DNA of 51,508 nucleotides from an uncultured Candidatus Saccharibacteria bacterium (lineage in GTDB: Bacteria; Patescibacteriota; Saccharimonadia; Saccharimonadales; EFPC-124), in assembly GCA_964586395.1 (NCBI GenBank), contig CAZPGP010000006.1, forward strand, positions 1 to 51,508, given 5' to 3'. Position 1 is the first letter of the stretch; each line of letters starts with the position of its first letter. Below the pieces are notes generated by a model. That model was not told where the DNA came from. It did no database searches and saw only the letters and a program-made list of their open reading frames with translations. Below, one piece after another: positions 9,266-51,508 of this stretch. Position numbers and translations under genes: made by a program.

Positions 9266-9304
9266 AAAAAGAAGTCGCGAGTGATCGCGGCTTCTTTGTT
9301 TTTG
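9266..9304 (+). terminator. Intrinsic terminator of rpsB-tsf
   Basis: Stem GAAGTCGCGA-gtga-TCGCGGCTTC, flanked by an A-run upstream and TTTGTTTTT downstream. Confidence 0.6.
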
Positions 9305-9315
9305 TGTTCAAGTAG
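9303..9315 (+). repeat. Degenerate copy of the cassette junction motif (TGTGTTCAAGTAG)
   Basis: Shares GTTCAAGT with the junction at 27434-27441 and holds the same position, between a native terminator and the cassette hairpin. Weak match. Confidence 0.25.
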
Positions 9316-9330
9316 TGTGGAGCTTGCCCG

Positions 9331-9372
9331 CCGGACGCCACTACCCATGCAGTCGCAGAGTAGGGCGCCCGG
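9331..9372 (-). terminator. GC-rich hairpin downstream of cassette gene A1
   Basis: CCGGACGCC..CTAC pairs with GTAG..GGCGCCCGG (one mismatch). Lies 25 nt past the stop at 9397. No U-tract. Confidence 0.4.
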
Positions 9373-9396
9373 CCGAGCAGTTCTCGTTGGAGTTGC

Positions 9397-9981
9397 TCAC
9401 CGAGTGGGCAGCAGGCAGGTTGCCAGGCTGCTGATGCGGCCACCTGGTACCGAGTCCCGGCGAATTTCATCCGGGCTCACGAACTGGATCTTGGGCGACG
9501 CCTTGAGCTTGGCCAGCACCGCAGCGGGCAGACCGATGTCGAAGATCTCGACCAGGTACAGAGTGTCCTGGACCGCGACGCCGCTGGGGCTTTGACCACG
9601 GTGCTGGACACGTCCCCTGAGTCGCTGGGTCAGGTGCCTGGCTTCGGCCGACGTCAGAACGTGGCTCCGGTCGATGAGCTGTTCGAACAGGGAGCGCAGC
9701 ACTCCGGTCTCCCGGAGCTGACGCGTTCCGAACCAGGTGACGACGTTGTCGACTCGAGCCACAGGCACAGTGAACCGAAGGTCGGATCGGCCCTCGGGCT
9801 GTGCCGCTCCGCAGTGCGTGGCCAGATAGTCCCAGCCGGTGGTGCTTTGGAGCGACCCGCCAAGTGGTCGCAGGAAGGTCTGGCCTTCTTTGGTCGTGAC
9901 GTAGAGCGCCAGGTTGCCTGCATCGTCCTTGATGCCGGCGAGCCCGGCGCAACTTACTCGGATTCTCGTGCCCGTACCCAT
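9397..9981 (-). CDS. GC-rich orphan protein A1 (paralog of 10173-10799; Nudix-fold-like N-terminus with a degenerate Nudix box)
   Basis: Start moved to ATG 9981, preceded by GGAGGTGG and a TTGTCA-16-TATAAT promoter. Third codon positions are almost all G/C. Shares the blocks RVSCxG, PxGGxL, LRFxVP, NVVxWFxTR, TLYLxE and DEIR with A2. Confidence 0.55.
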   Translation of the reverse strand: MGTGTRIRVSCAGLAGIKDDAGNLALYVTTKEGQTFLRPLGGSLQSTTGWDYLATHCGAAQPEGRSDLRFTVPVARVDNVVTWFGTRQLRETGVLRSLFEQLIDRSHVLTSAEARHLTQRLRGRVQHRGQSPSGVAVQDTLYLVEIFDIGLPAAVLAKLKASPKIQFVSPDEIRRDSVPGGRISSLATCLLPTR

Positions 9982-10030
9982 GATCAAGCCACCTCCGGTG
10001 GGGGAGTATTGCCAACAAGAACAAGGATTC

Positions 10031-10058
10031 ATTATATGTGTGTAACATTTTGTGACAA
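10031..10058 (-). promoter_or_regulatory. Sigma70-type promoter of cassette gene A1
   Basis: On the minus strand: TTGTCA (10058-10053), 16-nt spacer, TATAAT (10036-10031). Sits in a short AT-rich spacer between two GC-rich ORFs. Confidence 0.5.
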
Positions 10059-10172
10059 TCTTGAAATTATTGGGCGAAGTTGTCGGGTATAATATCTTGC
10101 GCGTTGAGTGGGGTCTCGCGCCAGATGGCGCCCGGCGAGTGGCTCGGGCACCATCTGGGCGGTGTGTTCTCG

Positions 10173-10799
10173 TCAACCTCTCGGGATCGTCTCGCTCGGA
10201 CGCAAGAGCGAAGCGGCGATGGGGTGGATGGGCGCGTCGTTGATCTCCAGCTTCTTGGCTCGGATCTCGTCAGCCGTGGCGAAACGGAAGTGCGACCGCC
10301 GTGCCACGGACTGCTGTCGCAACACGCGCATCGCCGCAGCCGGCACGGTGACCACGTACAGCTCGATCAAGTACAGCGTGTTGCGCTCATGCACGTTGGT
10401 GCGGAAGGTCTTGCCCGTTCCGCGTGCGAAGCCGGCGAAGCGATCGGTGATGCTGGCCGCCTGGGCGCGAGTGAGCACGCCGGTCTCCTCGAACAGCGCG
10501 TTCCGGAGTACTCGTCCGACTGATGTGTCGCGGTCCTCCCGCGTCTCGAACCAGTCGACGACGTTCGGAACCTGGGATGTCGGCACGGCGAACCGCAACG
10601 CAGCAGCCTGCTCGAAGGTGTCCGTTGGCGCGCCGAACTTCTGCATGAGCTTCGCCATCCCGCGGGCGCTCGCGTGGAGCGCGCCGCCGATCGGCATCAG
10701 GCCCATGTGTGACTCCATGTCGGTCAGTAGGCCGTAGCGCTTGCCATCCTTGAGAATGGCAAAGCCCGGACAGCTGACCCTTGTCATCATCGTTGACAT
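10173..10799 (-). CDS. GC-rich orphan protein A2 (paralog of A1)
   Basis: 208-aa ORF with ATG 10799 preceded by GGGGAG. High GC3. Contains PIGGAL and LFEETGVL, but the spacing does not fit a canonical Nudix box. Confidence 0.6.
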   Translation of the reverse strand: MSTMMTRVSCPGFAILKDGKRYGLLTDMESHMGLMPIGGALHASARGMAKLMQKFGAPTDTFEQAAALRFAVPTSQVPNVVDWFETREDRDTSVGRVLRNALFEETGVLTRAQAASITDRFAGFARGTGKTFRTNVHERNTLYLIELYVVTVPAAAMRVLRQQSVARRSHFRFATADEIRAKKLEINDAPIHPIAASLLRPSETIPRG

Positions 10800-10836
10800 T
10801 CTAACTCCCCGTTGATGGGCTACAGAACAAAAGGCT

Positions 10837-10864
10837 ATTATAATCAGTTATATCAATCTGGCAA
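10837..10864 (-). promoter_or_regulatory. Sigma70-type promoter of cassette gene A2
   Basis: On the minus strand: TTGCCA (10864-10859), 16-nt spacer, TATAAT (10842-10837). Confidence 0.5.
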
Positions 10865-10911
10865 CAGGGTTAGTCTGATATGATAAATAGAGAAGAAACT
10901 TTAGGAGCCGT

Positions 10912-11466
10912 ATGTTCGACACAAATCCATTTGCAGATAAGATGAATCAAGCCTTTGCGCACTTTGAGGAAGACCTCAAAAAGATCCGCACCGGTCGCGC
11001 TCACCCTGGCATGCTAGAGGGGGTAACGGTGGAAGCATACGGCAGCAAGATGCCGCTAAACCAGGTCGCCAACATCGTGGCGCCTGAGCCTCAGCTGCTG
11101 CAGGTGACTCCTTTTGACCCAAGCACGCTGAAGAACGTTGTCGCCGCCATCCGCGACGATCAGAGCCTTGGCTTCAACCCGAGCGACGACGGCCGAATTG
11201 TGCGAATTCCTGTGCCGCCTCTAACCACTGAGCGTCGTCAGCAGATCGCCAAGCAGCTCGGCGAGAAGGTAGAGGACTGCCGCATCGCTCTGCGCAATGT
11301 GCGCCATGATGCCCTCAAAGCTGCCAAGAAAGCCAAGGACGACAAGGCGATTGCCGAGAACGAAGTCCAGCGCGTCGAGCGAGTTGTCGATGACCTCATG
11401 AAGGACATGCAGGGCAAACTCGAAGCTGCAGCCAAGGCCAAAGAAACGGAAATCATGACGATCTAG
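10912..11466 (+). CDS. frr: Ribosome recycling factor
   Basis: 184 aa. Contains LKKIRTGRAHPGMLEGVTVEAYG, PPLTTERRQ and RNVRHDA. Confidence 0.95.
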   Translation: MFDTNPFADKMNQAFAHFEEDLKKIRTGRAHPGMLEGVTVEAYGSKMPLNQVANIVAPEPQLLQVTPFDPSTLKNVVAAIRDDQSLGFNPSDDGRIVRIPVPPLTTERRQQIAKQLGEKVEDCRIALRNVRHDALKAAKKAKDDKAIAENEVQRVERVVDDLMKDMQGKLEAAAKAKETEIMTI

Positions 11467-11494
11467 CGCCAACAAAGCGCTATAATGAACTGCC

Positions 11495-12199
11495 ATGCAC
11501 CAAGAATCTCCTGACATCTTGCCAACGCACATCGGTTTTATCATTGATGGAAACCGCCGGTGGGCCAAGCAGCACGGTCTGCCAAGTTACGAAGGCCACC
11601 TTGCGGGGTACAACGCCCTCAAGGATGTGCTGTACGAAACCTTTGATCGGGGCGTGAAGTATGCGTCTGTCTACGCGTTCTCGACCGAGAATTGGAAGCG
11701 CGCAGAAGAGGAAGTGGGCTACCTCATGAAGCTAACCCTCCGCATGGTCAAGACCGACCTGCACGAGTTCATCGAGCGTGGCATTCGTTTTAAACACCTC
11801 GGCTCTAAGGCTGACCTACCCGAGAAGGTCGCCAAGGCCTTTGAAGAAGCCGAGGAAAAAACCAAAGACCTGACCAAAGGTACAGTCTGCGCTTGCTTTA
11901 ATTACGGCGGTCAGCGTGAGATCGTCGAAGCCACCAAGAGATGCATCGAGGATGGCCTCAGCCCAGATGAAGTAAACGAAGAAGCGATCACGGCCCGGCT
12001 CTACGCGCCCGAGGTTCCGCCCGTTGATATGATGGTTCGTACCTCTGGCGAGCAGCGTATCAGCAATTTCATGCTGTGGCGTATTGCGTACAGTGAATTA
12101 CTGTTCTTGGACAAATTCTGGCCAGCCATGACAAAGGAAGACGTAACCGGTATCATAGAAGAATACGGCAGACGTAACCGCCGATTCGGAGGCAACTAG
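11495..12199 (+). CDS. uppS: Undecaprenyl-diphosphate synthase (cis-prenyltransferase)
   Basis: Contains HIGFIIDGNRRWA, YAFSTENWKR, RTSGEQRISNFMLW and a C-terminal RRFGG. Confidence 0.9.
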   Translation: MHQESPDILPTHIGFIIDGNRRWAKQHGLPSYEGHLAGYNALKDVLYETFDRGVKYASVYAFSTENWKRAEEEVGYLMKLTLRMVKTDLHEFIERGIRFKHLGSKADLPEKVAKAFEEAEEKTKDLTKGTVCACFNYGGQREIVEATKRCIEDGLSPDEVNEEAITARLYAPEVPPVDMMVRTSGEQRISNFMLWRIAYSELLFLDKFWPAMTKEDVTGIIEEYGRRNRRFGGN

Positions 12200-12203
12200 A
12201 ATT

Positions 12204-13298
12204 TTGGGAACACTGTATTTCATCATCGGGATCATTTTATTCGTGCTATTGGTTGTGATCCACGAGCTGGGTCACGCTATTGTCGCACGTCGTAATGGGG
12301 TAGTTGTCGAGGAGTTCGGCATTGGCTTCCCGCCACGCGCCTGGAAGAAGAAGCTTAAGAACGGCACGCTATTCACGCTTAACTGGCTGCCACTGGGTGG
12401 ATTCGTTAGGCTGAAGGGCGAGCACGATTCGGCAGATGGCCCTGGTACATACGGTGGCGCAACTATGTGGGTGAAGACCAAAATCCTGCTGGCTGGTGTG
12501 GTCATGAACTGGCTGACCGCTGTTGTTATCTTTACGATTTTGGCATTGACCGGTCTTCCGCAGCTTGTCCCGAACCAGTTTTCTGTGGCCGGTGACACGA
12601 AGGTTTCGACCGAAAACGTCTACGCCGCCGGAGTTGCAGCTGGGTCGCCAGCCGCAAAAGCAGGCATTGTTCATCGAGACTCGATCTTGGCGGCAAATGG
12701 CAAAGAGATTACTGGCGCTCAACAATTGGTCGATTTCACCGCTGCAAACGCAGGCAAAGAAGTGACGTTGACTGTTAAGCACGATGGTCAACAGCGCGAC
12801 GTAAAATTCACGTTGAACAAAGAACGAACTGCGAGCCAAGGCTACGCCGGCATCAGCCCGTTCGAACAGACCACGAGCACCTCAACATGGTCCGCACCGG
12901 TTGTCGGCGTCGGTCTAACCGCGCAGCTGACTTGGGAGACACTGAAGGGGATTGGCACGACATTGTCGCAGTTGTTCCGTGCTGAGTTTGCGCAGGCTGG
13001 CCAGAACGTTGCCGGCCCCGTTGGTATCTTTAGTATCCTGTGGAGCAGTAGCGAGATTGGCTTCCAGCCAGTGCTGTTCTTGATCGGTATCATTTCGCTG
13101 ACACTCGCGGTAATGAACGTTCTGCCGATTCCCGCGCTGGACGGGGGTCGATTATTCGTGACACTGATCTTCCGCGCACTGAAAAAGCCGCTCACCAAGG
13201 AGCGTGAAGAATCTATCCAAGCCGCTGGCTTCCTGGCGCTCATGGCGTTGGTTGTATTGATAACTGTGGTCGACGTCGGTCGCCTCACTGGCAAGTAG
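12204..13298 (+). CDS. M50 site-2 protease (RseP-like) with a PDZ domain
   Basis: HELGHA zinc motif in the first TM segment, a PDZ-like middle (GSPAAKAGIVHRDSILAANG), and NVLPIPALDGG. TTG start. Confidence 0.85.
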   Translation: MGTLYFIIGIILFVLLVVIHELGHAIVARRNGVVVEEFGIGFPPRAWKKKLKNGTLFTLNWLPLGGFVRLKGEHDSADGPGTYGGATMWVKTKILLAGVVMNWLTAVVIFTILALTGLPQLVPNQFSVAGDTKVSTENVYAAGVAAGSPAAKAGIVHRDSILAANGKEITGAQQLVDFTAANAGKEVTLTVKHDGQQRDVKFTLNKERTASQGYAGISPFEQTTSTSTWSAPVVGVGLTAQLTWETLKGIGTTLSQLFRAEFAQAGQNVAGPVGIFSILWSSSEIGFQPVLFLIGIISLTLAVMNVLPIPALDGGRLFVTLIFRALKKPLTKEREESIQAAGFLALMALVVLITVVDVGRLTGK

Positions 13299-14018
13299 AT
13301 GAGCGACGAGACCCACTCGAGCCGTCGGAAATCCCCCGAACCAAAAGAATGGGGGATTTTTGGCGCCACGGCGTGGGGGTTCGCGGCATTTTTCTTGCCG
13401 CAGTTCGCGCTCGTGCCGGTGCTCGGTGTTGTCGGGGCGCTGGCGTTGGATCAGAATGCCAAGATCTTTGTGCTGCAAGGTCTGACGCAGCTCATCACGC
13501 TGTGGGTGCTATGGCTTGTCATCACCAAGCTGTATCACAGCAAACTCTCTAAGATCGGCCTCGGCAAGTTCGACCCAGGGCTTTTGGGGTGGTCGGTTCT
13601 GGCGTTCCCGTTGTATTTGATTATCTCGACAGCGTTGTCCAACATATTCGCGGTGATGTTCAGTATCGACCTGACGGAGCATCAGGATATCGGCTATACC
13701 GACCCGAACGGGTATGAGTTGGCGCTGATATTTGTGGCGTTGGTTGTGTTGGCCCCGTTAGTTGAGGAAGTCTTGTTCCGGGGGTTTCTATTTACGGCCT
13801 TTCGGCGCACGTTTGGCTTTTGGGTTGGCGCGGTAGGGGTGAGTCTATTGTTCGCGGTGGCGCATGGACAGGCGAATGTGGGCATTGACGTTTTTGTGCT
13901 TAGTATGTTTCTCTGTTATTTGCGCGAAAAGACCGACAGTTTGTGGCCATCAGTCGCGCTGCATGCACTGAAAAATTTGGTAGCATTTATAGTTCTGTTT
14001 ATAATGAAAGTCAATTAG
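13299..14018 (+). CDS. CPBP-family (CAAX) intramembrane metalloprotease
   Basis: Multi-TM protein with EEVLFRG, FAVAHG and HALKN motifs. Confidence 0.75.
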   Translation: MSDETHSSRRKSPEPKEWGIFGATAWGFAAFFLPQFALVPVLGVVGALALDQNAKIFVLQGLTQLITLWVLWLVITKLYHSKLSKIGLGKFDPGLLGWSVLAFPLYLIISTALSNIFAVMFSIDLTEHQDIGYTDPNGYELALIFVALVVLAPLVEEVLFRGFLFTAFRRTFGFWVGAVGVSLLFAVAHGQANVGIDVFVLSMFLCYLREKTDSLWPSVALHALKNLVAFIVLFIMKVN

Positions 14019-14139
14019 GACCTCTGACGATGGTATTTTACACAGCCCAACCAGTCATGCACACGCCCGTTCCGGCTTGCCGGCCGTAATTTTTATACCC
14101 CAGATTTCGTACATGACATTTTAAGGAAGAGGATACTCA

Positions 14140-15384
14140 ATGAAAGTTTCACAACTGTTTACTAAGACCCGCAAGCAAGCGCCTGCGGATGAAACCGCCA
14201 AAAACGCCCAGCTGCTAATCCGCGCTGGCTTCGTCTACAAAGTAATGGCTGGCGTATACGCCTACACGCCACTTGGCCTTCGCGTTCTCGAGAACATCAA
14301 GCAGATTGTCCGCGAAGAGATGAACGCTGTGAATGGCCAAGAGCTAATCATGACTAACCTGCAACGCAAAGAAACATGGGAGACAACAACTCGTTGGGGC
14401 GACGACATCGTAGACGTGTGGTTTAAGACCAAACTCAAAGATGAAACAGAAGTCGGCCTAGCCTGGTCACACGAAGAAGCGATCATGGAAATGATGCAGC
14501 AGTACGTCGAGAGCTACAAAGACCTGCCAACCAGCGTCTATCAGTTCCAGACCAAACTTCGCAACGAGCTTCGCGCCAAAAGTGGCATTATGCGCGGCCG
14601 CGAATTTGTCATGAAGGACATGTATTCACTACACAATACCAGTGAAGACCTCGACGAATACTACGAGAAGGTTAAGCAGGCATACCTCCGCGTTTACGAC
14701 CGTCTTGGCCTAGGCGAGGACACTTACGTTACCTTTGCCAGCGGTGGCGCATTTACCAAATTCAGTCACGAATTCCAGACCATCTGTGAAGCCGGCGAGG
14801 ACATTCTGTATTTGCATCGCGAGAAGAAGATTGCTGTGAACGAGGAAGTCCTGGATGACGCCGTTGCAGAGTTAGGTATCGACAAAAGCGAACTCGAGAA
14901 GGTAAAGAGCGCCGAGGTCGGTAACATTTTCAACTTCGGAACCGAAAAATCAGAGCAAATGGGCATCTACGTAACGGGGGCAGATGGCAAGGAACAGCCA
15001 ATCTATCTGGCGAGTTACGGCATTGGCATTACCCGCGTCATGGGCGTAATAGTGGAGAAGTTTGCCGACGAGCATGGTATTGTGTGGCCAGACAACGTCG
15101 CACCTTACAAGCTATATCTCGTACGAATCGGTCAGAGCGACGAAGTTGTCGCTGAGGCTGACAAGTTGTACAAAACCCTTCGTGACAAGGGAATCGAAGT
15201 CCTGTATGACGACCGCGACGCTCGCCCTGGCGAGAAGTTCGCCGACGCCGATTTGATCGGCATCCCACATCGTGTGGTGGTCAGCGAAAAGACCATTGCT
15301 GCTGGTAAGCTGGAGTACAAGGCACGGGCCCAAGCCACCTCTGAGTCTATAGAGGTCGACACATTACTTGCCAAATTAGTTTAG
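14140..15384 (+). CDS. proS: Prolyl-tRNA synthetase (short form without the editing insertion)
   Basis: N-terminus KVSQLFTKTRKQAPADE..AQLLIRAGF, class II core FRNELRAKSGIMRGREF, and a C-terminal anticodon-binding domain. 414 aa. Confidence 0.85.
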   Translation: MKVSQLFTKTRKQAPADETAKNAQLLIRAGFVYKVMAGVYAYTPLGLRVLENIKQIVREEMNAVNGQELIMTNLQRKETWETTTRWGDDIVDVWFKTKLKDETEVGLAWSHEEAIMEMMQQYVESYKDLPTSVYQFQTKLRNELRAKSGIMRGREFVMKDMYSLHNTSEDLDEYYEKVKQAYLRVYDRLGLGEDTYVTFASGGAFTKFSHEFQTICEAGEDILYLHREKKIAVNEEVLDDAVAELGIDKSELEKVKSAEVGNIFNFGTEKSEQMGIYVTGADGKEQPIYLASYGIGITRVMGVIVEKFADEHGIVWPDNVAPYKLYLVRIGQSDEVVAEADKLYKTLRDKGIEVLYDDRDARPGEKFADADLIGIPHRVVVSEKTIAAGKLEYKARAQATSESIEVDTLLAKLV

Positions 15385-15513
15385 ACTGCTATACTGTAGC
15401 GTACGAACGGACACGGTGGTAGCCGAGGCCAGTTTATAAGACTGCTACACGGGTTCGTACGCTCCAAGGAATAGCATTCCCCAAATTGTAATGAGTGAGG
15501 AGAGGGAAGAATT

Positions 15514-15972
15514 ATGAAGAAAGTGTATCAGCTGACACCAGCTGGCAAATTAGAACTAGAAAAAGAACTCAACGAGCTCAAGTCTCAGCGCAGCGACATC
15601 GCGCAGAAAATTGCTGATGCGCGCGACTACGGTGACCTGAGCGAAAACGCTGAGTACGACTCTGCACGCGCCGAACAGGGGCAGCTCGAGACTCGTATCT
15701 CTGAGATCGAGGAAATCCTGCAGAACGCAAGCATCATCGAACACACCAAGACCTCTAAGGTGACTCTTGGCGTGACCGTTGTGCTGAAGAGCGACAAGGG
15801 CAAGACGGTGAGCTATGCTATCGTTGGCTCTGTTGAAGCTGACCCGCTCGAGGGTAAGATCTCTGATGAATCACCAATTGGTCAGGCTCTCCTGAACAAG
15901 AAGGTCGGCGACACTGCCACCATCAAGACTCCACGCGGTGAAGTTGTTTACACCGTCGAAGAGATCAAGTAG
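15514..15972 (+). CDS. greA: Transcription elongation factor GreA
   Basis: N-terminal coiled coil with DLSENAEYDSAR, and a C-terminal Gre domain (ISDESPIGQALLNKKVGD). Confidence 0.9.
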   Translation: MKKVYQLTPAGKLELEKELNELKSQRSDIAQKIADARDYGDLSENAEYDSARAEQGQLETRISEIEEILQNASIIEHTKTSKVTLGVTVVLKSDKGKTVSYAIVGSVEADPLEGKISDESPIGQALLNKKVGDTATIKTPRGEVVYTVEEIK

Positions 15973-15991
15973 CAAGTTCCCTCAATCACAC

Positions 15992-16020
15992 AAAAAGTCC
16001 GGCGCTGTGCCGGACTTTTT
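15992..16020. terminator. Intrinsic (bidirectional-looking) terminator after greA
   Basis: AAAAAGTCCGGC-gctgt-GCCGGACTTTTT, a perfect stem flanked by A5 and T5. Confidence 0.7.
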
Positions 16021-16032
16021 GTGCTGTGAGTG

Positions 16033-16041
16033 TATAAGTTC
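16033..16041 (+). repeat. Cassette junction motif TATAAGTTC (exact)
   Basis: Lies between the greA terminator and the hairpin of cassette gene B1. Confidence 0.6.
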
Positions 16042-16052
16042 TGTGCGGTGAT

Positions 16053-16084
16053 CCGCCGCCTGCGATGGTGGTCGCAGGGGCGGG
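16053..16084 (-). terminator. GC-rich hairpin downstream of cassette gene B1
   Basis: CCGCCGCCTGCGA-tggtgg-TCGCAGGGGCGG (one bulge). No U-tract. Confidence 0.45.
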
Positions 16085-16132
16085 TCGCCGACATCGTGTT
16101 AGGGGTCTCGTCCCGGTGCCGCCAGTGACAGC

Positions 16133-16639
16133 CTAGGCCGTCACGTACCGGTACCCGAACGCGTTCGGGCTGGTGAGTCGCAGCGCGGCCGGGATGGCGA
16201 CGAAGCCGAAGGCCAGGAGGGACTCCAGGACGGAACTGATGCTGATCTTCTGGACGATGAGCAGGCCCACGGTGGTGGTACTGGCCATGGCCACGATCAC
16301 TGCGATCGTCGTCAGCTTGCCCGAGCGACCAGTCCTCGCCATCGGCCGCTTCGCGAAGCTGGTGATGATGATCGCGAGCATGCTGACGATGAACGTCGCC
16401 AGCGCGATCACCGCGACCATGCCGAGGTTTTCCCAGCGCATGTAGTCCTTGATACCGATGAAGCCGAGCACCTCCCGCGTGCCAACGGGGTAGTGGGCGC
16501 CGAAGAAGTTCACGGCCTGGAAGTACGCGAGGGTCATGCCGATGGAGAAGGCGGTCGCCGTAATGGCGTCTGCGATCGCGGCGCGGATTTCACCGTTGTC
16601 GGAGTTGTACTGGCCGCGGATGATGTTGGGGATTCGCAC
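16133..16639 (-). CDS. GC-rich 4-TM membrane protein B1 (orphan)
   Basis: 168 aa. GTG start preceded by AGGAG. Four hydrophobic segments and high GC3. C-terminal NAFGYRYV resembles APIGYRRLGF of B2. Confidence 0.55.
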   Translation of the reverse strand: MRIPNIIRGQYNSDNGEIRAAIADAITATAFSIGMTLAYFQAVNFFGAHYPVGTREVLGFIGIKDYMRWENLGMVAVIALATFIVSMLAIIITSFAKRPMARTGRSGKLTTIAVIVAMASTTTVGLLIVQKISISSVLESLLAFGFVAIPAALRLTSPNAFGYRYVTA

Positions 16640-16699
16640 GGAGCGCTCCTGTGATGTCGGGTTCGGGGCGGGTGTTAGCTGCCCTAGTTGAACTTGAAT

Positions 16700-16728
16700 A
16701 TATTAGCATAAAAGGTTTAAAATGTCAA
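16700..16728 (-). promoter_or_regulatory. Near-consensus sigma70 promoter of cassette gene B1
   Basis: On the minus strand: TTGACA (16728-16723), 17-nt spacer, TAATAT (16705-16700). Confidence 0.6.
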
Positions 16729-16779
16729 TATCTTATAACCACCTTCACCCCTGTTGTGAAGTCGGGAAATAGGGTAATC

Positions 16780-16788
16780 TATAAGTTC
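16780..16788 (+). repeat. Cassette junction motif TATAAGTTC (exact)
   Basis: Lies between the B1 promoter region and the hairpin of cassette gene B2. Confidence 0.6.
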
Positions 16789-16795
16789 TTGTCAG

Positions 16796-16834
16796 GCTGG
16801 CCCGCCACCGTCAGATCGACGGGGCGGGGCCAGC
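16796..16834 (-). terminator. GC-rich hairpin downstream of cassette gene B2
   Basis: GCTGGCCCGCC...GGCGGGGCCAGC (one bulge), 22 nt past the stop at 16856. Confidence 0.45.
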
Positions 16835-16855
16835 GCTGAGTTCATCTTGCTCGGG

Positions 16856-17344
16856 TCACTTCGAATTGGTGAAGCGGATGAACCCGAGTCGCCGGTAGCC
16901 GATCGGCGCCGCGGCCAGACCGAAGGCACCGAACGCCTGGAGGAGCTTGATCGGGTCGAAGCCGTACGGGTAGGACGGCAGGGCGACCAGCTCGCGGATG
17001 CTGCCCATGATCCAGATGACGACCGTTGCCGCCAGCATCACCAGTATGGTGCGCCAGACGGTCCGGAACATCGAGCGGATCAGGCGAGGCTCGGATCGGA
17101 GCAGCACGCTGTTGGCCATGCTGGCCAGGCCGACCATGGCCGCGACGACTGCCTGTGTGGTCGCGACGTTCTCGAACTCCATGGGCATGAACCACCGGCC
17201 GCGGTCGCTCGCGTTGTAGAGCGCGAACGAGGCGATCAGAGTGATCATGCTGAGGACGAAGACCAGGACGGCGTCGATCAGCCCCACCAGGAGCGGGTTG
17301 TTGTATGTGGAAACCAGTCGAGCGAGACGTGTACGCGTGGTCAC
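16856..17344 (-). CDS. GC-rich 4-TM membrane protein B2 (orphan, same architecture as B1)
   Basis: 162 aa. GTG start preceded by GGGAGG. Four hydrophobic segments and high GC3. Several long shadow ORFs overlap it in other frames. Confidence 0.55.
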   Translation of the reverse strand: MTTRTRLARLVSTYNNPLLVGLIDAVLVFVLSMITLIASFALYNASDRGRWFMPMEFENVATTQAVVAAMVGLASMANSVLLRSEPRLIRSMFRTVWRTILVMLAATVVIWIMGSIRELVALPSYPYGFDPIKLLQAFGAFGLAAAPIGYRRLGFIRFTNSK

Positions 17345-39709: not shown

Positions 39710-39719
39710 GCAGCGCCGA

Positions 39720-43635: not shown

Positions 43636-43672
43636 CTGGGTGCGCCCGCGGATTCCTCCGGAGCGCACCCAG
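43636..43672 (-). terminator. GC-rich hairpin downstream of cassette gene G
   Basis: CTGGGTGCGC...GCGCACCCAG, 7 nt past the stop at 43679. Confidence 0.5.
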
Positions 43673-43678
43673 TCGGCG

Positions 43679-44272
43679 TCAGTCCTCGTCCCGAATGTCG
43701 GGGATGGTGGGTTTGCGGCGAGCCCTGTCACGGAAGCGCGCCGCGATGGTGATGCCCTCTGTGGGGCGGTAGGCCAGCTCCAGGTCGCCAGTGGTCGGCA
43801 CGAGGCCTGGCGTGACGACCTTGAAGTACCAGCCGCAACGCGCGTTTCTCATCATGGCTGCGGCGGTTCCTTCGCCGCGCAGCATGTCGAGTTTGGCGCA
43901 CGGACTGCGTGGGCCGGTGACCTCCAGGAGGGCTTCACCCCAGCGCCATCGCTCGCCGATGAGTACCTCGTCCTCGGTGATCCCGTCGACCGTCAGGTTC
44001 TCGCCGAAGTCGCCGGGGACCAGGACTGTGCCCATCTCCGGCACCCACAGCGCGTAATGGTCGCGCGGGTAGACGTACACGGTCTTGTCGTTGACGGCAC
44101 CGTGCACTACGTGGTCGGCTTGCTCGTCGCCCTCCAGGCCGGTGGCGTGAAGGTAGACGTGTGTGTCGTTCACTGGCGCCTTGCGGATGCCGGAGCGGAC
44201 TTGCCTGCCACGGCGTTCGCCCAGCAGCGCCACTCGACCGGTGTTGACTGACACGATCTCCATTGTTCCCAT
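43679..44272 (-). CDS. MOSC-domain protein (YiiM-like); GC-rich cassette gene G
   Basis: Contains GLEGDEQAD, PGDFGENLTV.G, GERWRWGEALLEVTGPRSPCAKL (conserved Cys) and CGWYFKV. Start set to ATG 44272 after GGGAGAG; the TTG at 44290 is possible. Confidence 0.75.
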   Translation of the reverse strand: MGTMEIVSVNTGRVALLGERRGRQVRSGIRKAPVNDTHVYLHATGLEGDEQADHVVHGAVNDKTVYVYPRDHYALWVPEMGTVLVPGDFGENLTVDGITEDEVLIGERWRWGEALLEVTGPRSPCAKLDMLRGEGTAAAMMRNARCGWYFKVVTPGLVPTTGDLELAYRPTEGITIAARFRDRARRKPTIPDIRDED

Positions 44273-44307
44273 GCTCTCTCCCAGACTCAAGGGGACATGA
44301 CAGACTA

Positions 44308-44336
44308 TTTATAAGATAGAAATATCTTCTTGGCAA
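44308..44336 (-). promoter_or_regulatory. Sigma70-type promoter of cassette gene G
   Basis: On the minus strand: TTGCCA (44336-44331), 17-nt spacer, TATAAA (44313-44308). Confidence 0.55.
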
Positions 44337-44371
44337 CCTAGGCCGCCAGTACGATATAATGGAACGAGTTT

Positions 44372-45400: not shown

Positions 45401-46499
45401 CGAGCTTATCGCGCTCGTCAATCAGACCCTCGAGTACGCCTACCCGAGCGTGGTTGTCGAAGGCGAAATTAGCTCGTTCAAGGTCAGCAAGGGCAAGTTC
45501 GTGTTCTTCGACCTCAAGGATGAAGAGAGCGTTGTGAGCTGCTTCATGATGGTTTACCAAATGCGCACCCCACTCGAGGACGGCATGAAGGTCAAAGTGG
45601 TTGCTAACCCCAAGCTGACAGCCTGGGGTAAATTCAGCCTGACGATTCGCGAAGTTGCGCCGGTGGGCGAGGGGAGCATCAAGCGCTCATTCCAGCTGTT
45701 GAAGGCAAAGCTCGAAAAGGAGGGTTTGTTTGATCCTGGACGTAAGCGACGCCTGCCTGCAATTCCGGAGCGCATAGCCGTGATTTCGTCGATCGAGGCT
45801 GCAGGATATGCTGACTTTGTCAAGATTCTGAACGGGCGATGGGGTGGCGTAGACGTCACCGTTGCGAACGTTGGCGTACAGGGTGCTGGTGCGAGCATTC
45901 AGATCGTCGAGGCGTTGCAACACTTCAATGAAGACGCCAACCCCGTCGATGTCATCGTGCTGGTGCGAGGTGGCGGTAGCGCCGATGACCTAGCGGTGTG
46001 GAGCGATGAACCTCTTGTGCGCGCGATTGCCGCCAGCCGTATTCCGACGCTGGTTGGCGTAGGGCACGAGGTCGACACGAGTTTGGCTGACATGGCCGCC
46101 GACGTTCGTGCTGCAACTCCGAGTAACGCCGCGCAGATCCTCGTGCCAGACCGTGAAGCGCTGATTCGAGAGCTGCATCACAAGCAGCAGCGTATGCTGA
46201 CGCGTTTGAGTGCCCGCCGCGAGCGCACGCTGCAATGGACCGAGGTAAGTGTCGAGCGAATGCTGAACCGGTTGTCGGCTGCGCTAAGCACTCAACAGCG
46301 CCACGTAGCGTACGCCCGCCAGACGCTCCGACAGCTTGACCCGAAGGTTGTCCTCGCTCGTGGCTACGCGCTTGTGCGTGACGGCAATCAGGCCATCGTA
46401 AAGGATGCACACAAGCTTAAGCCTGGAGCATCCATTGCAATCGAAACAAGTAACGTGATAATTAATGCAGGAGTAACCAATGTCCAGCCCAAAGAATGA
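45375..46499 (+). CDS. xseA: Exodeoxyribonuclease VII large subunit
   Basis: N-terminal OB fold (VSELIALVNQTLE..VVVEGEIS), VRGGGSADDL and GHEVD. Followed by xseB. Confidence 0.9.
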   Translation: METLVLRVSELIALVNQTLEYAYPSVVVEGEISSFKVSKGKFVFFDLKDEESVVSCFMMVYQMRTPLEDGMKVKVVANPKLTAWGKFSLTIREVAPVGEGSIKRSFQLLKAKLEKEGLFDPGRKRRLPAIPERIAVISSIEAAGYADFVKILNGRWGGVDVTVANVGVQGAGASIQIVEALQHFNEDANPVDVIVLVRGGGSADDLAVWSDEPLVRAIAASRIPTLVGVGHEVDTSLADMAADVRAATPSNAAQILVPDREALIRELHHKQQRMLTRLSARRERTLQWTEVSVERMLNRLSAALSTQQRHVAYARQTLRQLDPKVVLARGYALVRDGNQAIVKDAHKLKPGASIAIETSNVIINAGVTNVQPKE

Positions 46500-47366: not shown

Positions 47367-48023
47367 ATGATTCGACAAAGCGACCAACGGGGCGAAGTCA
47401 ACCCACTGCTACTGATCAGTATCGTGCTGACCATTCTAGTGTTGGGCTTGGGCTCGTTCGGTATCTGGTCATACATCAACTATACAGATCAGAAAAATAA
47501 CGTCGACCAGAAGATTTCTGCCGCCGTGGCAGACGCCAAGCGCCAGCAGACCCTGGAAGACGAAGCTAAGTTCGCAGAACGCGAGAAGCAGCCAACCCGC
47601 GTCTTTGCCGGTCCTGACGATCTCGGTCGCGTACAGATTAGCTACCCTAAGACCTGGAGCGTCTACATCGACAAGGACGGTAGCGGCAGCAACAACTACG
47701 AAGCATACTTCTCAGCCGGTGTCGTGCCTCCAATCAACAGCAAAGTTCCGTACGCTCTTCGCGTAACTGTCGAAAACAAGAGCTACGAAGACATCCTCAA
47801 GACCTATCAAGAACTCGTAAAGAAGGGCGATCTTAAGTCCAGTCCAATTACTTTGCAAGGCCAAACCGGTACTCGCCTCGATGGCAAGTTCACCAAGGAA
47901 ATCTCTGGCTCAATGGTGCTCTTCAAGGTCCGCGACAAAACCCTCGAAGTCTACACTCAGTCGCCAACATTCGTACCTGACTACGACAACATCATCTTGC
48001 CTTCACTGATCTTCAACAAGTAG
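47367..48023 (+). CDS. Membrane-anchored hypothetical protein
   Basis: 218 aa with one N-terminal TM segment and a backbone-like composition. No motif recognised. Confidence 0.5.
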   Translation: MIRQSDQRGEVNPLLLISIVLTILVLGLGSFGIWSYINYTDQKNNVDQKISAAVADAKRQQTLEDEAKFAEREKQPTRVFAGPDDLGRVQISYPKTWSVYIDKDGSGSNNYEAYFSAGVVPPINSKVPYALRVTVENKSYEDILKTYQELVKKGDLKSSPITLQGQTGTRLDGKFTKEISGSMVLFKVRDKTLEVYTQSPTFVPDYDNIILPSLIFNK

Positions 48024-48031
48024 ATAAGTTC
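48023..48031 (+). repeat. Cassette junction motif variant GATAAGTTC
   Basis: Overlaps the last base of the TAG stop of the preceding gene and lies 16 nt before the hairpin of cassette gene H. Confidence 0.55.
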
Positions 48032-48047
48032 ATAAAATTTGACGTGC

Positions 48048-48071
48048 GGGCGGCCCTCTCTGGGGCCGCCC
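48048..48071 (-). terminator. GC-rich hairpin downstream of cassette gene H
   Basis: GGGCGGCCC-tctctg-GGGCCGCCC, a perfect 9-bp stem. Confidence 0.5.
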
Positions 48072-48100
48072 GATTCTCACTTCGTCTCGGATGCTTGGGG

Positions 48101-48697
48101 TCAGCCTGACATCTTGATGTCGGCCGGGTCGACGTTGTAGCGGGCGTATACCTCCCAGGCCGCACCGGTCGTCTGTTCGCCATGGATCATCTCTGGCGAC
48201 CGACCGTCTTGCGCACGAAGTTCGATGAACTTGTACTCAGCCTGATGGTCTTGCCCCTTGGGGTAGTAGTGGATGCTGCTACCTTGCCCCATCTGGACGA
48301 ATCGGCGTGCTTGCCAGGTAAGCCCGCGTGATCCGTCGAGGGTGAACACGACATTCACCGGGACTGCCATCCAGGCCGCACGGATCTTCCCGCTTGGGTC
48401 AGAGGGATCGGCCTGGATGTAGAGCATGGTGAACTTGCCGGCATCGCCTTTGAGGCCGATGCGGTAGCACCGCCCCTGCTGCATGCCGTGCACCACGGTT
48501 TGCGATTCAACTGCATAGGCCACGCCGTCGTAGATGATACGGTGACCGCCCCTCAGCGATAGCAGCTTTTGCTCATGCGTGGCTCGCTGTGCTTCGCTGT
48601 CTTGGGAGGGCGCGGCCCTACTGGCCCATGCACCCACAACAGCGGCGAGCACAACCACGCCGACTACGAGGAGAACTGCTCTCCATGCTTCAAACAT
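48101..48697 (-). CDS. GC-rich membrane-anchored/secreted orphan protein H (198 aa)
   Basis: Start moved to ATG 48697 after GGAG; the upstream part of the listed ORF is AT-rich promoter sequence. Has an N-terminal hydrophobic segment, AVLLVVGVVVLAAVVGAWA. Confidence 0.5.
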   Translation of the reverse strand: MFEAWRAVLLVVGVVVLAAVVGAWASRAAPSQDSEAQRATHEQKLLSLRGGHRIIYDGVAYAVESQTVVHGMQQGRCYRIGLKGDAGKFTMLYIQADPSDPSGKIRAAWMAVPVNVVFTLDGSRGLTWQARRFVQMGQGSSIHYYPKGQDHQAEYKFIELRAQDGRSPEMIHGEQTTGAAWEVYARYNVDPADIKMSG

Positions 48698-48824
48698 GAC
48701 AAACTCCAGAGGAGTTGGATGGTTAGAATGCGAGAATCGAGTATTATTGTTGTATATTTTTAGCAATTAAGCAAGTAGCTTGGCTTCGTGCTACACTTGA
48801 TATAGAACAAAAGTGAGGGTATAA

Positions 48825-49924: not shown

Positions 49925-50585
49925 GACCGAAGCCATTATCCTCCGGCGCACGAACTACGGCGAAGCTGACCGTATATTGAATTTGTTAACGCCCGAGCGA
50001 GGCAAAGTGAGTGCCATTGCGAAGGGCGTTCGCAAATCCAAGAGCAAGCTCGCCGGTGGCCTGGAGCTCTTCGCGACCTGTGATGTCACGATCCTACAGG
50101 GAAAGAGCGACATGGGAACGGTCAGCTCGGCGCGCCTGGTGAAATTTTACGGCGATATCCTGAAGGACTATGACCGCATGCAGCTGGCATATGAGCTTAT
50201 CAAGATGACAAACCGTGCAGCAGAGATGGTCGGCGAATCTGAGTTTTATTATCTGCTCCGCGACGGTATGGTGTATCTGAACGAGCTAACTGTTGACTAT
50301 CGCATTGTGGAGCTGTGGTTTCGGTTGCGCTATGCGTCGGCTCTGGGTGTGGGGCTTAACCTCGCCGCAACGGCACAGGGCGAACAGCTAAAGGCGGATG
50401 AGCGGTATAACTTTGATTTCGGCGATATGGCGTTTGGGCCGCATCCGAGCGGGCGATTTGGTTCGGAACATATCAAGCTGCTGCGGTTGGCGCACGCCAA
50501 AGATCCTGCCATCTTGCGGCAGGTGAGCGGTCTGAACGATGTGCTGGATGATTGCTTGTGGCTGGTCCGAGCACTTAATCAATAA
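49911..50585 (+). CDS. recO: DNA repair protein RecO
   Basis: Contains TEAIILRRTNYGEADRILNLLTPERGKVSAIAKGVRKSKSK (OB fold). Confidence 0.8.
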   Translation: MQTFRTEAIILRRTNYGEADRILNLLTPERGKVSAIAKGVRKSKSKLAGGLELFATCDVTILQGKSDMGTVSSARLVKFYGDILKDYDRMQLAYELIKMTNRAAEMVGESEFYYLLRDGMVYLNELTVDYRIVELWFRLRYASALGVGLNLAATAQGEQLKADERYNFDFGDMAFGPHPSGRFGSEHIKLLRLAHAKDPAILRQVSGLNDVLDDCLWLVRALNQ

Positions 50586-50593
50586 ATAATTTC
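50585..50593 (+). repeat. Degenerate junction motif AATAATTTC abutting the recO stop codon
   Basis: Has 2 mismatches to TATAAGTTC and lies 19 nt before the hairpin of cassette gene I. Confidence 0.3.
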
Positions 50594-50612
50594 AATTAGA
50601 GTCTCCGTGCCA

Positions 50613-50651
50613 GCCGACACCGCCGCCCAGGTTCTGGGCAGGGGTGTCGGC
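50613..50651 (-). terminator. GC-rich hairpin downstream of cassette gene I
   Basis: GCCGACACC.CC.CCCAG-gtt-CTGGG..GG.GGTGTCGGC. Confidence 0.5.
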
Positions 50652-50672
50652 CGACTTGAGAGAGGTTTCCCT

Positions 50673-51362
50673 TCAGCAACCGTCGTCGACGCGGTAGGTC
50701 TTGTCGTAGCCGAACTCGTCGTCGGCTTCGGCGGTCCACGTGGCGTGGTCCTCGCGGATCGTGCGGAGCTTGTGCGCCGGGGTGTAGTGCTTGTTGCGAC
50801 GGTTCGCACGGGCCTTGCGCAGGCGCTCACGGCGGTTCGCCGCGATCTGCTTGCGCGCGAGGGCCGTGCCGTGGTCGCCGGGCGCGATGTAGCGCCGTCC
50901 CTTCGCCTTGCGGCGGGAGTTGGGCGTTGTGCGCAGCCAGGTCATCTCGGCCAGGCGCGCATCCAGCGGATCGGTGTTGTCGATGGTGACGACGCCGATC
51001 TCGATGGCGACCTGCAAGGCCAACTGCGCAGCCTTCATCGACTTGATCAGCCGTCGAATGGCCTCACGGCGCCTCCAGAGCGTCTTCGACTCGTCGTCGA
51101 TCGCCTTCGCACGCATCTCCTCGTGCGTTTTCCACGCCACGTCTGGCGAGTCGATCTCGGCCTTGTACATCTCGCGTTCGATCAGGGCGAGCACCACGTC
51201 CATCTCCTTGAAGATCGACATCAGCTCGGCGTACGACGTCGCTCGCTGGGCCGCCATCTGGAGGTCCAGCAGTTGCATCGACAGCATTTCCTCCCTGCAG
51301 AGAGCGCCCATGGGGCAGTCGGTGCAGGTCGGCTCGTCCTGGACAACGGGGGTCAGCGACAA
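50673..51362 (-). CDS. GC-rich, highly charged orphan protein I (Cys-rich N-terminus, Arg/Lys-rich C-terminal half)
   Basis: The ORF extends to ATG 51413, but that part is AT-rich and contains an 8-bp palindrome. TTG 51362 lies 6 nt after GAGAGGAG. No family recognised. Confidence 0.45.
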   Translation of the reverse strand: MSLTPVVQDEPTCTDCPMGALCREEMLSMQLLDLQMAAQRATSYAELMSIFKEMDVVLALIEREMYKAEIDSPDVAWKTHEEMRAKAIDDESKTLWRRREAIRRLIKSMKAAQLALQVAIEIGVVTIDNTDPLDARLAEMTWLRTTPNSRRKAKGRRYIAPGDHGTALARKQIAANRRERLRKARANRRNKHYTPAHKLRTIREDHATWTAEADDEFGYDKTYRVDDGC

Positions 51363-51380
51363 GGCTAACTCCTCTCTCGG

Positions 51381-51403
51381 CCGCCAATTTCTAACATTGG
51401 CGG
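51381..51403 (-). promoter_or_regulatory. Perfect 8-bp inverted repeat in the leader of cassette gene I (possible operator or 5' hairpin)
   Basis: CCGCCAAT-ttctaac-ATTGGCGG, immediately upstream (in coding direction) of the SD sequence GAGAGGAG. Confidence 0.35.
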
Positions 51404-51444
51404 AATGAGACATATTCTAAACTATTTATACTGATTGGTCAAAT

Positions 51445-51458
51445 TATAAGCTTAAGTT
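51445..51458 (+). repeat. Junction-motif-like sequence TATAAGCTTAAGTT at the start of a further cassette
   Basis: Followed 6 nt later by another GC-rich hairpin. The cassette body lies beyond the window end. Confidence 0.35.
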
Positions 51459-51464
51459 GCGGAT

Positions 51465-51505
51465 GGCCCGCCCCAGAGGCTCTGTGCGGAGCGTGGGGCG
51501 GGGCC
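51465..51505 (-). terminator. GC-rich hairpin of a cassette truncated by the window end
   Basis: GGCCCGCCCCA...TGGGGCGGGGCC (one bulge). Same position relative to the motif as in the other cassettes. Confidence 0.4.
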
Positions 51506-51508
51506 GCG

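Follow-up and report, generated by a model that had tools for sequence, protein, structure and literature searches.

Minimal mobile elements (MMEs), described from Neisseria (Saunders & Snyder 2002; Snyder et al. 2007; both as cited in PMC3787668), are sites at which whole-gene content varies between specific conserved flanking genes. The content of these sites differs among close relatives and can be common to more distant ones, mobility genes are lacking in the units, and their exchange in a naturally transformable group of organisms is explained by homologous recombination in the flanks. Integron cassettes, a second model, consist of a single open reading frame (ORF) and a structured, sequence-variable hairpin 3' of it, with a short conserved sequence at the cassette boundary and between tandem units. 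Phage morons, a third, are autonomous promoter-ORF-terminator units of deviating composition between conserved genes. Here we compare these systems with a family of GC-rich cassettes in a 51,508-nt chromosome piece (contig CAZPGP010000006.1; hereafter the window) of a bacterium that we term soil-type Saccharibacteria, of the order Saccharimonadales in the Candidate Phyla Radiation (CPR). CPR bacteria, including Saccharibacteria, have tiny, highly syntenic genomes and live attached to a host. We think it probable, if well short of certain, that the cassettes are of foreign origin, contain one gene each and occupy permissive slots of a streamlined chromosome, and that, like MMEs, they are exchanged by transformation and recombination.

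The cassettes stand out by composition. Unsupervised segmentation of GC content returned eleven cassette blocks at 0.63-0.69 GC against 0.55 for the whole window, the profile outside the blocks being 0.50-0.58, and additionally marked one mild backbone stretch (45935-46385, 0.64 GC). GC content at third codon positions (GC3) is 0.68-0.92 in cassette ORFs and 0.50-0.73, mostly ~0.63, in backbone genes; H is the weakest block (GC3 0.68). These values confirm the blocks that an earlier note had proposed from inspection of the letters, except that E1, which it counted among them, is an insert of ~0.61 GC that segmentation did not call. The GC richness ends sharply at transcription-unit borders. 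Each unit is laid out as a sigma-70 promoter, a 5' untranslated region (UTR) with a Shine-Dalgarno (SD) sequence, an ORF, a strong GC hairpin and an AT-rich tail ending (A)TAAGTTCA. A consensus promoter scan found six promoters (A1, A2, B1, B2, C and I); D scored 9/12 in the same scan and the promoter of G comes from direct reading, so that all seven promoters first seen by eye (A1, A2, B1, B2, C, D, G) stand. Of the five ORFs thought to have weak or no -35 elements (E1, E2, the gnd-like gene, H and I), the gnd-like gene indeed has no promoter of its own, but I does have one. The tail regions give hairpin-dominated RNA folds of -29 to -58 kcal/mol with sequences that all differ, and none of the cassette hairpins passes a stem-plus-T-run terminator scan that the native tsf, secA, pcsB and rpmA terminators pass; the hairpins are thus as various and as devoid of a U-tract as had been claimed. 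No common sequence was found at the promoter-side ends. The units, in window order, are:

A1, 9303 to 10058, minus strand: ORF 9397-9981, 194 aa, Sa_NUDIX (Pfam PF18167, E=1e-11); weak tail motif TGTGTTCAA at 9303-9311; GC hairpin ~9326-9390, fold -47.9 kcal/mol; promoter TTGTCA-16-TATAAT at 10031-10058, score 11/12.
A2, 10099 to 10864, minus strand: ORF 10173-10799, 208 aa, Sa_NUDIX, GC3 0.84; hairpin ~10105-10165; promoter TTGCCA-16-TATAAT at 10837-10864; confirmed to have no motif copy of its own.
B1, 16033 to 16728, minus strand: ORF 16133-16639, orphan 168-aa membrane protein, GC3 0.92; exact motif at 16033-16041, then hairpin; promoter TTGACA-17-TAATAT at 16700-16728.
B2, 16767 to 17473, minus strand: ORF 16856-17344, 162-aa membrane protein; exact motif at 16780-16788, then hairpin; promoter TTGACT-17-TAAAAT at 17397-17425; 11-nt flanking direct repeat AAATAGGGTAA at 16767-16777 and 17463-17473, a copy of the lysS promoter.
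C, 27429 to 27881, minus strand: ORF 27502-27813, 103 aa; exact motif directly 3' of the secA terminator, then hairpin; promoter TTGACT-16-TATTAT at 27854-27881.
D, 33163 to 33678, minus strand: ORF 33249-33605, 118-aa membrane protein; motif AATAAGTTC adjoining the glyoxalase stop codon, then hairpin; promoter TTGCAA-17-TAGAAT at 33650-33678.
E1 insert, 34776 to 35321, plus strand: putatively coding; hairpin ~35251-35300.
prfB relic, 35322 to 35360, plus strand: former prfB 3' end (GFISSYLERAE*), containing the exact motif at 35329.
E2, 35329 to 35830, minus strand: ORF 35403-35777, 124 aa; hairpin 35356-35398; -10 box TATAAT near 35815.
F, 38739 to 39795, plus strand: ORF 38780-39709, 309 aa, gnd-like decarboxylating 6-phosphogluconate dehydrogenase (PF03446, PF00393), GC3 0.86; hairpin ~39719-39770; located after the pcsB terminator.
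G, 43592 to 44371, minus strand: MOSC-domain protein (PF03473), ORF 43679-44269/44290; hairpin ~43624-43665; promoter TTGCCA-17-TATAAA; motif-like CATGAGTTC overlapping the methyltransferase start codon.
H, 48023 to 48795, minus strand: ORF 48101-48697 (or to 48766), no Pfam match; motif GATAAGTTC adjoining the stop codon of the upstream gene, then hairpin.
I, 50585 to 51442, minus strand: ORF 50673-51413, 246 aa; motif variant AATAATTTC adjoining the recO stop codon, then hairpin; promoter TTGACC-17-TAGAAT at 51414-51442.
K-J start, 51445 to 51508, cut by the window end, minus strand: motif variant TATAAGCTT and hairpin of a two-gene unit (95 + 244 aa).
Segmented GC blocks 1 to 6: 9326-9950, 10099-10704, 16045-16672, 16795-17358, 27445-27793, 33178-33594.
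Segmented GC blocks 7 to 11: 35359-35738, 38794-39773, 43624-44241, 48043-48662, 50605-51385.

The strongest likeness to MMEs lies in the slots. The secA/M16, prfB/ftsE, pcsB/ctpA and methyltransferase/LPG-synthase junctions span 20-200 bp in most Saccharibacteria, and the gene order of the prfB region is common to ~50 others; in most of these ~50 syntenic genomes the slots are empty. They are filled in one small clade only, made up of the window and the related loci L011, L012, L091-L094, L177-L179 and L181, all at ~0.54-0.56 GC. Comparing the slots of the window, L011, L012, L091, L092, L177, L179 and L181, we found different cassettes or none at secA/M16, murL/prfB, prfB/ftsE, pcsB/CHAP, methyltransferase/LPG-synthase and 218aa/HisKA. 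The same conserved pair of flanking genes thus encloses variable genes among close relatives, which is how MMEs are recognized, and the claim of insertion into a conserved backbone is borne out. L091, whose backbone proteins are ~93 % identical to those of the window, has neither E1 nor H, with sharp boundaries, and L181 has neither C nor E. The secA slot holds unrelated genes in L092 and L012. H is missing from its slot in L091 (which has ~140 nt of unrelated intergenic sequence there), L092 and L093, and L177 carries a different cassette at this place, with the junction TAA-GTTC. The gnd slot is empty in L011 and L012. L011 thus has no gnd cassette while its sister L092 has one; the pcsB-CHAP gap of L011 (13896-14201, ~300 bp) contains two hairpin-like stretches and may be the remnant of a lost cassette.

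Could the cassettes be an artefact, high-GC reads joined to a CPR genome by the assembler? The sharp compositional steps are the sole support for such a chimera, whose probability we consider negligible. It is refuted by at least 10 independent Logan assemblies (the A1 gene in 10) that, at ~92 % nucleotide identity, have A1, A2, B1 and B2 arranged as here; contigs of related genomes from JGI, ENA and NCBI also carry the same cassettes in the same places, and the divergence of orthologs keeps pace with that of the backbone.

The empty C slot of L181 defines the extent of a unit. It aligns with the window on both sides, and the insert runs from the motif to a few bases past the -35 box, showing that the AT-rich promoter and the AT-rich tail both belong to the unit. 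The motif itself is missing from every empty site examined. It is therefore borne by the cassettes and is not a target, contrary to the idea, raised before this analysis, that the units are placed at a preferred short sequence. Within the secA slot the cassettes join the backbone variously, past the terminator or 2 nt past the stop codon, and these differing positions argue against site-specific insertion. Target-site duplications are convincing at B2 only (11 nt); a 7-nt repeat at H is within chance, and none was found elsewhere. An apparent break of homology between strains exactly at the 16780 motif was rejected, the alignment having just a 26-nt indel beside the motif. A metagenome scan with histidyl-tRNA synthetase returned distant, lower-GC Saccharibacteria only and hence no outgroup for cassettes A and B, and looking up exact matches to pcsB and the response regulator was equally uninformative.

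How would the units reach their slots? Homology-facilitated illegitimate recombination during transformation is known from Acinetobacter and Streptococcus pneumoniae, and two units look like its products. E1, which L091 lacks with exact boundaries, came with a new prfB 3' end, the final ~100-150 nt, ending at 34775. This new end is 88 % identical to L092 and 73 % to the sister L091; along prfB, the window is 0.82 identical to L092 and 0.70 to L091 at the end, whereas upstream it is 0.70-0.75 identical to L092 and 0.87-0.88 to L091. The 39-nt relic after E1 matches the in-frame prfB end of L091 at 36/38 positions (counted by eye). One homologous crossover and one illegitimate joint are the signature of this process, with the donor-type prfB 3' end as the anchor and the relic as its partial duplicate. 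B2 is likewise bracketed by the 11-nt duplicate of the neighbouring lysS promoter. Just two of the units here are scarred in this way.

The backbone also bears marks of recombination. Compared with L001, a representative of strains with ~92 % average nucleotide identity to the window, it is a mosaic of tracts of 65-100 % identity, whereas the cassettes stay at a steady 91-97 %. This mosaic and the recombinant prfB 3' end point to frequent homologous recombination with divergent lineages. Across 5509-19000 the tracts are a few hundred bases long with identities of 0.65-1.00, for example ~0.66 in lysS (17600-18000) and ~0.99 in rpsB (7800-8600). Horizontal gene transfer into Saccharibacteria has reportedly been described in an earlier study. 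Natural competence is established for Saccharibacteria, which take linear DNA into intergenic sites through homologous recombination that depends on comEC (PMC10633639). In Patescibacteria, most horizontal transfers stay inside the phylum and most are old, with competence proposed as a route, according to those parts of PMC12455944 on which we draw. The cassettes resemble the transfers described there as foreign genes in reduced epibiont genomes; the literature on Patescibacteria transfer, in the portions that we drew on, made no mention of cassettes built to one plan, of turnover slot by slot in a syntenic backbone or of a tail motif common to the units.

We therefore favour a route that would need no dedicated recombinase. 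The coding cores would derive from GC-rich donors, with hosts or their phages as possible sources of the orphan genes, and most units would have been acquired before the small 54-56 % GC Saccharimonadales clade radiated. After arrival they would have lost GC while their proteins evolved fast. Whole promoter-to-tail blocks would have been gained, lost and exchanged between related lineages by natural transformation, with subsequent homologous recombination through the conserved genes on either side. Sometimes, as in E1 and probably B2, only one side would have been homologous and the other joined illegitimately. The placement of units by stop codons and terminators, convergent with the upstream gene, may reflect what selection tolerates given the tiny spacers. 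Unlike the MMEs of Neisseria, the units here are single-gene, strongly GC-rich relative to the genome and equipped with their own promoter and hairpin, and most carry an 8-9-nt tail motif, whereas Neisseria has no cassette-specific tag and its DNA uptake sequence (DUS) is genome-wide. Exchange by transformation is, in our case, something we infer.

Where did the coding cores come from? Donor searches covered the gnd-like, MOSC, B1 and I proteins. The gnd-like protein has relatives of 79-84 % identity in the same slot of clade genomes. The next tier comprises hundreds of matches at 63-67 %, and all organism-named ones belong to Solirubrobacterales/Thermoleophilia (Actinomycetota), the best relatives outside Saccharibacteria being Solirubrobacterales at 64-67 %. 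By these matches its donor appears to be a Thermoleophilia-like actinomycete. MOSC relatives above 46 % identity appear, in part from the one named match, to be from this clade, and no donor stands out. Among 5.8 billion proteins, B1 matches itself and an 89 % identical strain variant only; for I, a set of 1.84 billion cluster representatives contains seven relatives, and the named members are all Saccharimonadales. Both look like orphans restricted to this Saccharimonadales clade. The actinobacterial donor that the earlier note suggested thus holds for the gnd-like gene and fails to extend to MOSC, B1 or I.

Most acquisitions are old rather than recent. The gnd-like gene, MOSC and D lie at the same sites across the clade (MOSC in 8/8 clade genomes). 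The identity matrices of gnd and MOSC roughly follow the backbone tree, at 2-4 times larger divergence, so both were acquired before the clade radiated. The C ortholog of L011 (tail ATAAGCTC) has 49 % amino acid identity, and the E2 ortholog of L091 is 54 % identical although its flanking genes are 91-100 % identical. The ratio of nonsynonymous to synonymous divergence (dN/dS) is high, at 0.2-0.7 in cassettes and 0.01-0.15 in backbone genes.

Is the high GC content maintained or is it being lost? Third-position changes among the three closest lineages run 67 from GC to AT and 9 from AT to GC in cassettes, compared with 1006 and 616 in the backbone, and the implied equilibrium GC3 is ~0.50 and 0.52, respectively. 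The 67:9 excess means that cassette GC is being lost, not maintained, and active maintenance of GC3 is disfavoured. More decayed copies exist as well: GC3 is 0.76-0.79 in the gnd genes of L177/L179 and 0.70 in the MOSC gene of L012. Compositional contrast combined with directional decay is what amelioration of foreign genes leaves behind; horizontal acquisition, as first proposed, is upheld, and the GC richness is a slowly decaying relic. Synonymous divergence (dS) is 2-3 times lower in cassettes than in backbone genes. Imported divergent tracts inflate the backbone values, and they cannot overwrite cassettes because these are missing in most lineages. Overlapping antisense genes were rejected as a cause of this low dS and of the high dN/dS, since codons rich in GC3 are expected to produce long antisense ORFs in any case.

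The same data bear on the idea that the cassettes are native, fast-evolving, lineage-specific genes whose high GC would arise or be upheld locally, for example through GC-biased gene conversion at recombination-prone accessory loci or mRNA selection. The absence of relatives of B1 and I outside the clade, the low cassette dS and the sharp end of GC richness at transcription-unit borders all fit that idea, as does a GC3 of 0.76-0.90 held across lineages whose backbone synonymous sites are near saturation. Even so we judge it distinctly improbable: recent third-position changes run 7:1 towards AT with the same equilibrium as the backbone, the gnd copies of L177/L179 and the MOSC copy of L012 are visibly more decayed, gnd groups with Actinomycetota, the slots are empty in most Saccharibacteria, and imported tracts account for the dS difference.

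Several points weigh against our preferred explanation, foreign units exchanged by transformation and recombination. The persistence of high GC3 despite near-saturated backbone synonymous sites is at the upper limit of simple amelioration, which fits only if the donor GC3 was ~0.95 or the backbone divergence is inflated by imports. A donor was found for one cassette only. Recombination alone leaves unexplained why unrelated cassettes end in a common 8-9-nt tail 0-2 nt from the boundary, and why they are trimmed exactly from -35 box to tail. Competence is documented for cultured oral Saccharibacteria rather than for this organism (PMC10633639). Finally, a trans-acting recombinase may be encoded elsewhere, since our search spanned the window and the loci of its relatives.

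A phage source has some appeal. The promoter-ORF-terminator layout is that of morons, many of the genes are small orphans, and the Sa_NUDIX domain of A1 and A2 otherwise comes from defence systems. Yet the neighbours are all housekeeping genes in conserved order (tsf, frr, greA, lysS, secA, prfB, ftsEX, recO) with no phage genes among them; no PHROG family matches any of ten cassette proteins, viral contigs contain no relatives of I or A2, the two proteins scanned, and there is no integrase, tRNA or att repeat. We consider phage morons, or scattered remnants of prophages or mobile elements, very improbable, and the term moron survives as an analogy of architecture only. A1 and A2 themselves are paralogs with 36 % identity, and in both the Sa_NUDIX domain stands alone; elsewhere it is found fused to two-transmembrane (2TM) effectors of cyclic-oligonucleotide-based antiphage signalling systems (CBASS) or in defence-associated reverse transcriptase (DRT) systems. 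It is conceivable that they act against cyclic-nucleotide defence of the host. They sit between tsf and frr, an interval that holds pyrH in many bacteria.

The feature that sets these cassettes apart from described elements is the tail motif. TATAAGTTC is exact at 16033, 16780, 27429 and 35329 and has one mismatch at 33163 and 48023, the positions first noticed by eye, although the copy at 35329 turns out to lie inside the prfB relic. The window contains seven copies of the 8-mer ATAAGTTC, always on the plus strand, against 0.62 expected; 0/100 shuffles reach seven, so the enrichment is real. Six of the seven copies are found 12-30 nt ahead of the GC block of a cassette. Clade loci totalling 196 kb contain 23 exact copies, of which 17 stand before a cassette hairpin and the remainder are coding (an automatic filter passes 15 copies, one of them a coding false positive, and three more narrowly miss it). 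In 2.27 Mb of other loci, mostly Saccharibacteria, 0/92 copies precede a GC hairpin. Its strand is constant: in the sense direction of the cassette it reads TGAACTTAT downstream of the hairpin. It is unpaired in 17/17 folds, 7-27 nt from the stem, and lies 0-2 nt from the insert boundary, where the TAA of the convergent gene's stop codon is often part of the junction (TAA-GTTC in L177, L179 and L181).

Conservation points to selection at the nucleotide level. In the D tail, TTGAACTTATT is the sole invariant stretch across five lineages, and the accompanying hairpin shows five compensatory pairs. At the prfB codons that overlap the E2 tail, the window relic has ATA AGT TCA (ISS), as do L091 and L177, and L179 has ATA AAT TCA; all of these genomes carry E2. 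Genomes with no E2 have ATC AGC GCC, ATA GAC GCC or ATC AAT GCA at the same codons. By these comparisons the motif is a genuine component of the cassette tail, specific to the clade and maintained by nucleotide-level selection. Orthologous cassettes are sometimes motif-less (C in L177; gnd and MOSC in several lineages), and prevalence drops with distance from the window. Among the looser copies in the earlier note, that at 9303 is present but weak, and those at 39790 and 43589 fall away, being the spacers between -10 box and ATG of leaderless-type neighbour genes (CHAP and methyltransferase, respectively).

The D slot shows a further junction. An AraC-family regulator (minus strand) and a glyoxalase gene (plus strand), both of normal GC3, occupy 31875-33163 in the window and L091 only, fitting exactly between the murL stop codon and the D motif; in L177, L179 and L181 the D-slot motif directly follows murL (TAA-GTTCAA).

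What does the motif do? Most likely it acts in cis as a 3'-end signal, in termination, RNA 3'-end formation or insulation, that a lineage-specific factor would read. We favour this because a compact genome puts the last functional element of a unit outermost and because the motif is retained even where it falls within the coding sequence of a neighbour. A serious rival is a recombination or nicking site whose enzyme would be encoded elsewhere.

That rival would make motif and variable hairpin the recombination site of a dispersed, integron-like or otherwise site-specific system, in which a remote enzyme inserts cassettes by ORF ends. As in attC sites, the short motif is at one end only, in fixed orientation, beside hairpins that differ in sequence. 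Its selection, its position 0-2 nt from the boundary and its overlap with stop codons in several registers (TAA-GTTC, TAAATAA-GTTC, TAGATAA-GTTC) also suit an integration site, and later insertions (B1, the AraC-glyoxalase pair and E1) lie on the outer side of an existing motif. The motif further stands between the tandem units B2/B1, J/I and, in L011, Y/X: the J tail AAGCTTATAA adjoins the -35 box of cassette I, and the 15-nt junction of the two, GTCAAATTATAAGCT, recurs between two unrelated cassettes in L011 (926). Against this, arrays comprise at most two units. L183, which continues the window, has at 1124-2175 a GC-rich operon of K (95 aa, GC3 0.76) and J (244 aa, GC3 0.88) and next a glycyl-tRNA-synthetase-like (glyS-like) gene, so the recO slot holds no long array. 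No integrase or transposase domain was found in Pfam scans of 40 window ORFs (cassettes and neighbours), nor in precomputed Pfam lists for eight clade loci of roughly 20 kb each, and the window has no tRNA; the earlier failure to see any of these in the window by eye is thereby confirmed. Junction positions differ among cassettes of the same slot, orthologous C, gnd and MOSC carry the motif in some lineages and not in others, no solo motifs or empty attachment sites were found, and the E1 scar is of the recombination type.

The structure of the tails is also unlike that of integron cassettes. The motif is unpaired and does not fit GTTRRRY/RYYYAAC, there is no R''/R' partner (an inverted partner is lacking, and a complementary 6-mer across the hairpin exists in cassette C only), and neither the 51.5-kb window nor the loci of its relatives contain intI, attI or Pc. 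Integron cassettes are moreover arrayed, whereas the units here are dispersed over many slots and mostly have their own promoters. On balance we consider a site-specific system unlikely. Quite doubtful, too, is the related notion of an 'integron without an array', in which recombination or nicking machinery that reads structure would use motif and structure-conserved hairpin as its site, capture single foreign genes, add a promoter and place them at ORF boundaries throughout the chromosome.

Other roles for the motif were tried and rejected. As a plus-strand promoter it reads TATAAG with no -7 T, lacks a -35 box or a correctly spaced TG, and is directly followed by the terminator hairpin. As an -35 element of the extracytoplasmic function (ECF) type (GAACTT) it has no -10 partner at 16-17 nt, and as a tyrosine-recombinase core arm no inverted partner 6-8 nt off. 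attC-like R''/R' pairing fails because no fold pairs the motif. Terminal inverted repeats, with AAGTTC close to the transcription start and GAACTT in the tail, occur in B1 only. Pairing of mRNA 5' and 3' ends gave no signal, with a mean of -10.05 kcal/mol for UTR-tail duplexes of the same unit and -10.15 kcal/mol for mismatched pairs. Unlike DUS and uptake signal sequences (USS), the motif is not over-represented outside cassette tails, where 6 exact 8-mers lie in the 196 kb of clade loci (hand-sorted); the density in other loci would predict ~7.9 over the full 196 kb. Rfam and ARAGORN found no known RNA family or tRNA target, and the motif string had no relevant match in the literature. IS91 inserts next to GTTC with no target duplication. 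Here GTTC belongs to the motif and adjoins the hairpin side, the motif is cassette-borne and missing from empty sites, and B2 has an 11-nt flanking repeat; unlike in HUH elements of the IS200/IS605 or IS91 type and their non-autonomous derivatives, whose ends bear conserved (sub)terminal hairpins for the transposase to recognise, the hairpins all differ and are at the tail end only.

Why do these units matter? They offer a quantifiable picture of innovation in CPR bacteria: about a dozen foreign single-gene expression units in fixed slots, with gain, loss and replacement visible among close relatives and transformation-type scars at two units. The natural competence of Saccharibacteria would thereby be tied to real gene-content evolution. 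The stand-alone Sa_NUDIX proteins and the small membrane orphans are candidate host-interaction genes. On a wilder and quite doubtful reading, donor-like codon usage, SD-led translation and hairpins with no U-tract could persist for expression in the actinobacterial host. The shared tail motif is the part that goes beyond established mechanisms. As a true recombination site it would represent a new system of gene capture; as a true 3'-end signal it would give a first cis-element for gene expression in CPR bacteria, of use in engineering them.

The backbone around the cassettes is made of mostly co-oriented housekeeping genes. Pfam assigns to it two S26 signal peptidases, a LytR-Cps2A-Psr (LCP) protein, an HtrA-like protease, prmC, prfA, rpmE, rpsB, tsf, frr, uppS, rseP, a hisS-like gene, greA, a class-I lysS, msrA, serS, hpf and secA, followed by an M16 peptidase, a Mur ligase, MurL, prfB, ftsEX, a pcsB-like CHAP gene, ctpA, rpmA, xseAB, two two-component genes and recO. 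The best matches of release factor 2 are metagenome-assembled genomes of Saccharibacteria/Saccharimonadales, the nearest just 77-78 % identical in a scan of one genome per GTDB species. The two signal peptidase I (S26) genes, at 247-1546 on the minus strand, are tandem and overlapping. Between lysS and DUF2207 (18842-19597) lies an AT-rich, variable slot: in the window it holds an ORF of 251 aa that matches no Pfam family, at a local GC of 0.45-0.49, the L001-type strains have an AAA_15/AAA_21 ATPase and an HNH nuclease with the look of a defence system (L001 13532-15350), and L002 has a different 256-aa ORF (13534-14304).

In many backbone genes the start codon follows a TAnnnT -10 box by just 6-9 nt and an SD sequence is missing, for example at 11495, 22469, 33696, 35910, 39796, 42425-43591 (minus strand) and 44372. 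This spacing suggests that leaderless mRNAs may be widespread among backbone genes. The cassettes contrast with these starts, having -35/-10 promoters, leaders of 10-55 nt and strong SD sequences.

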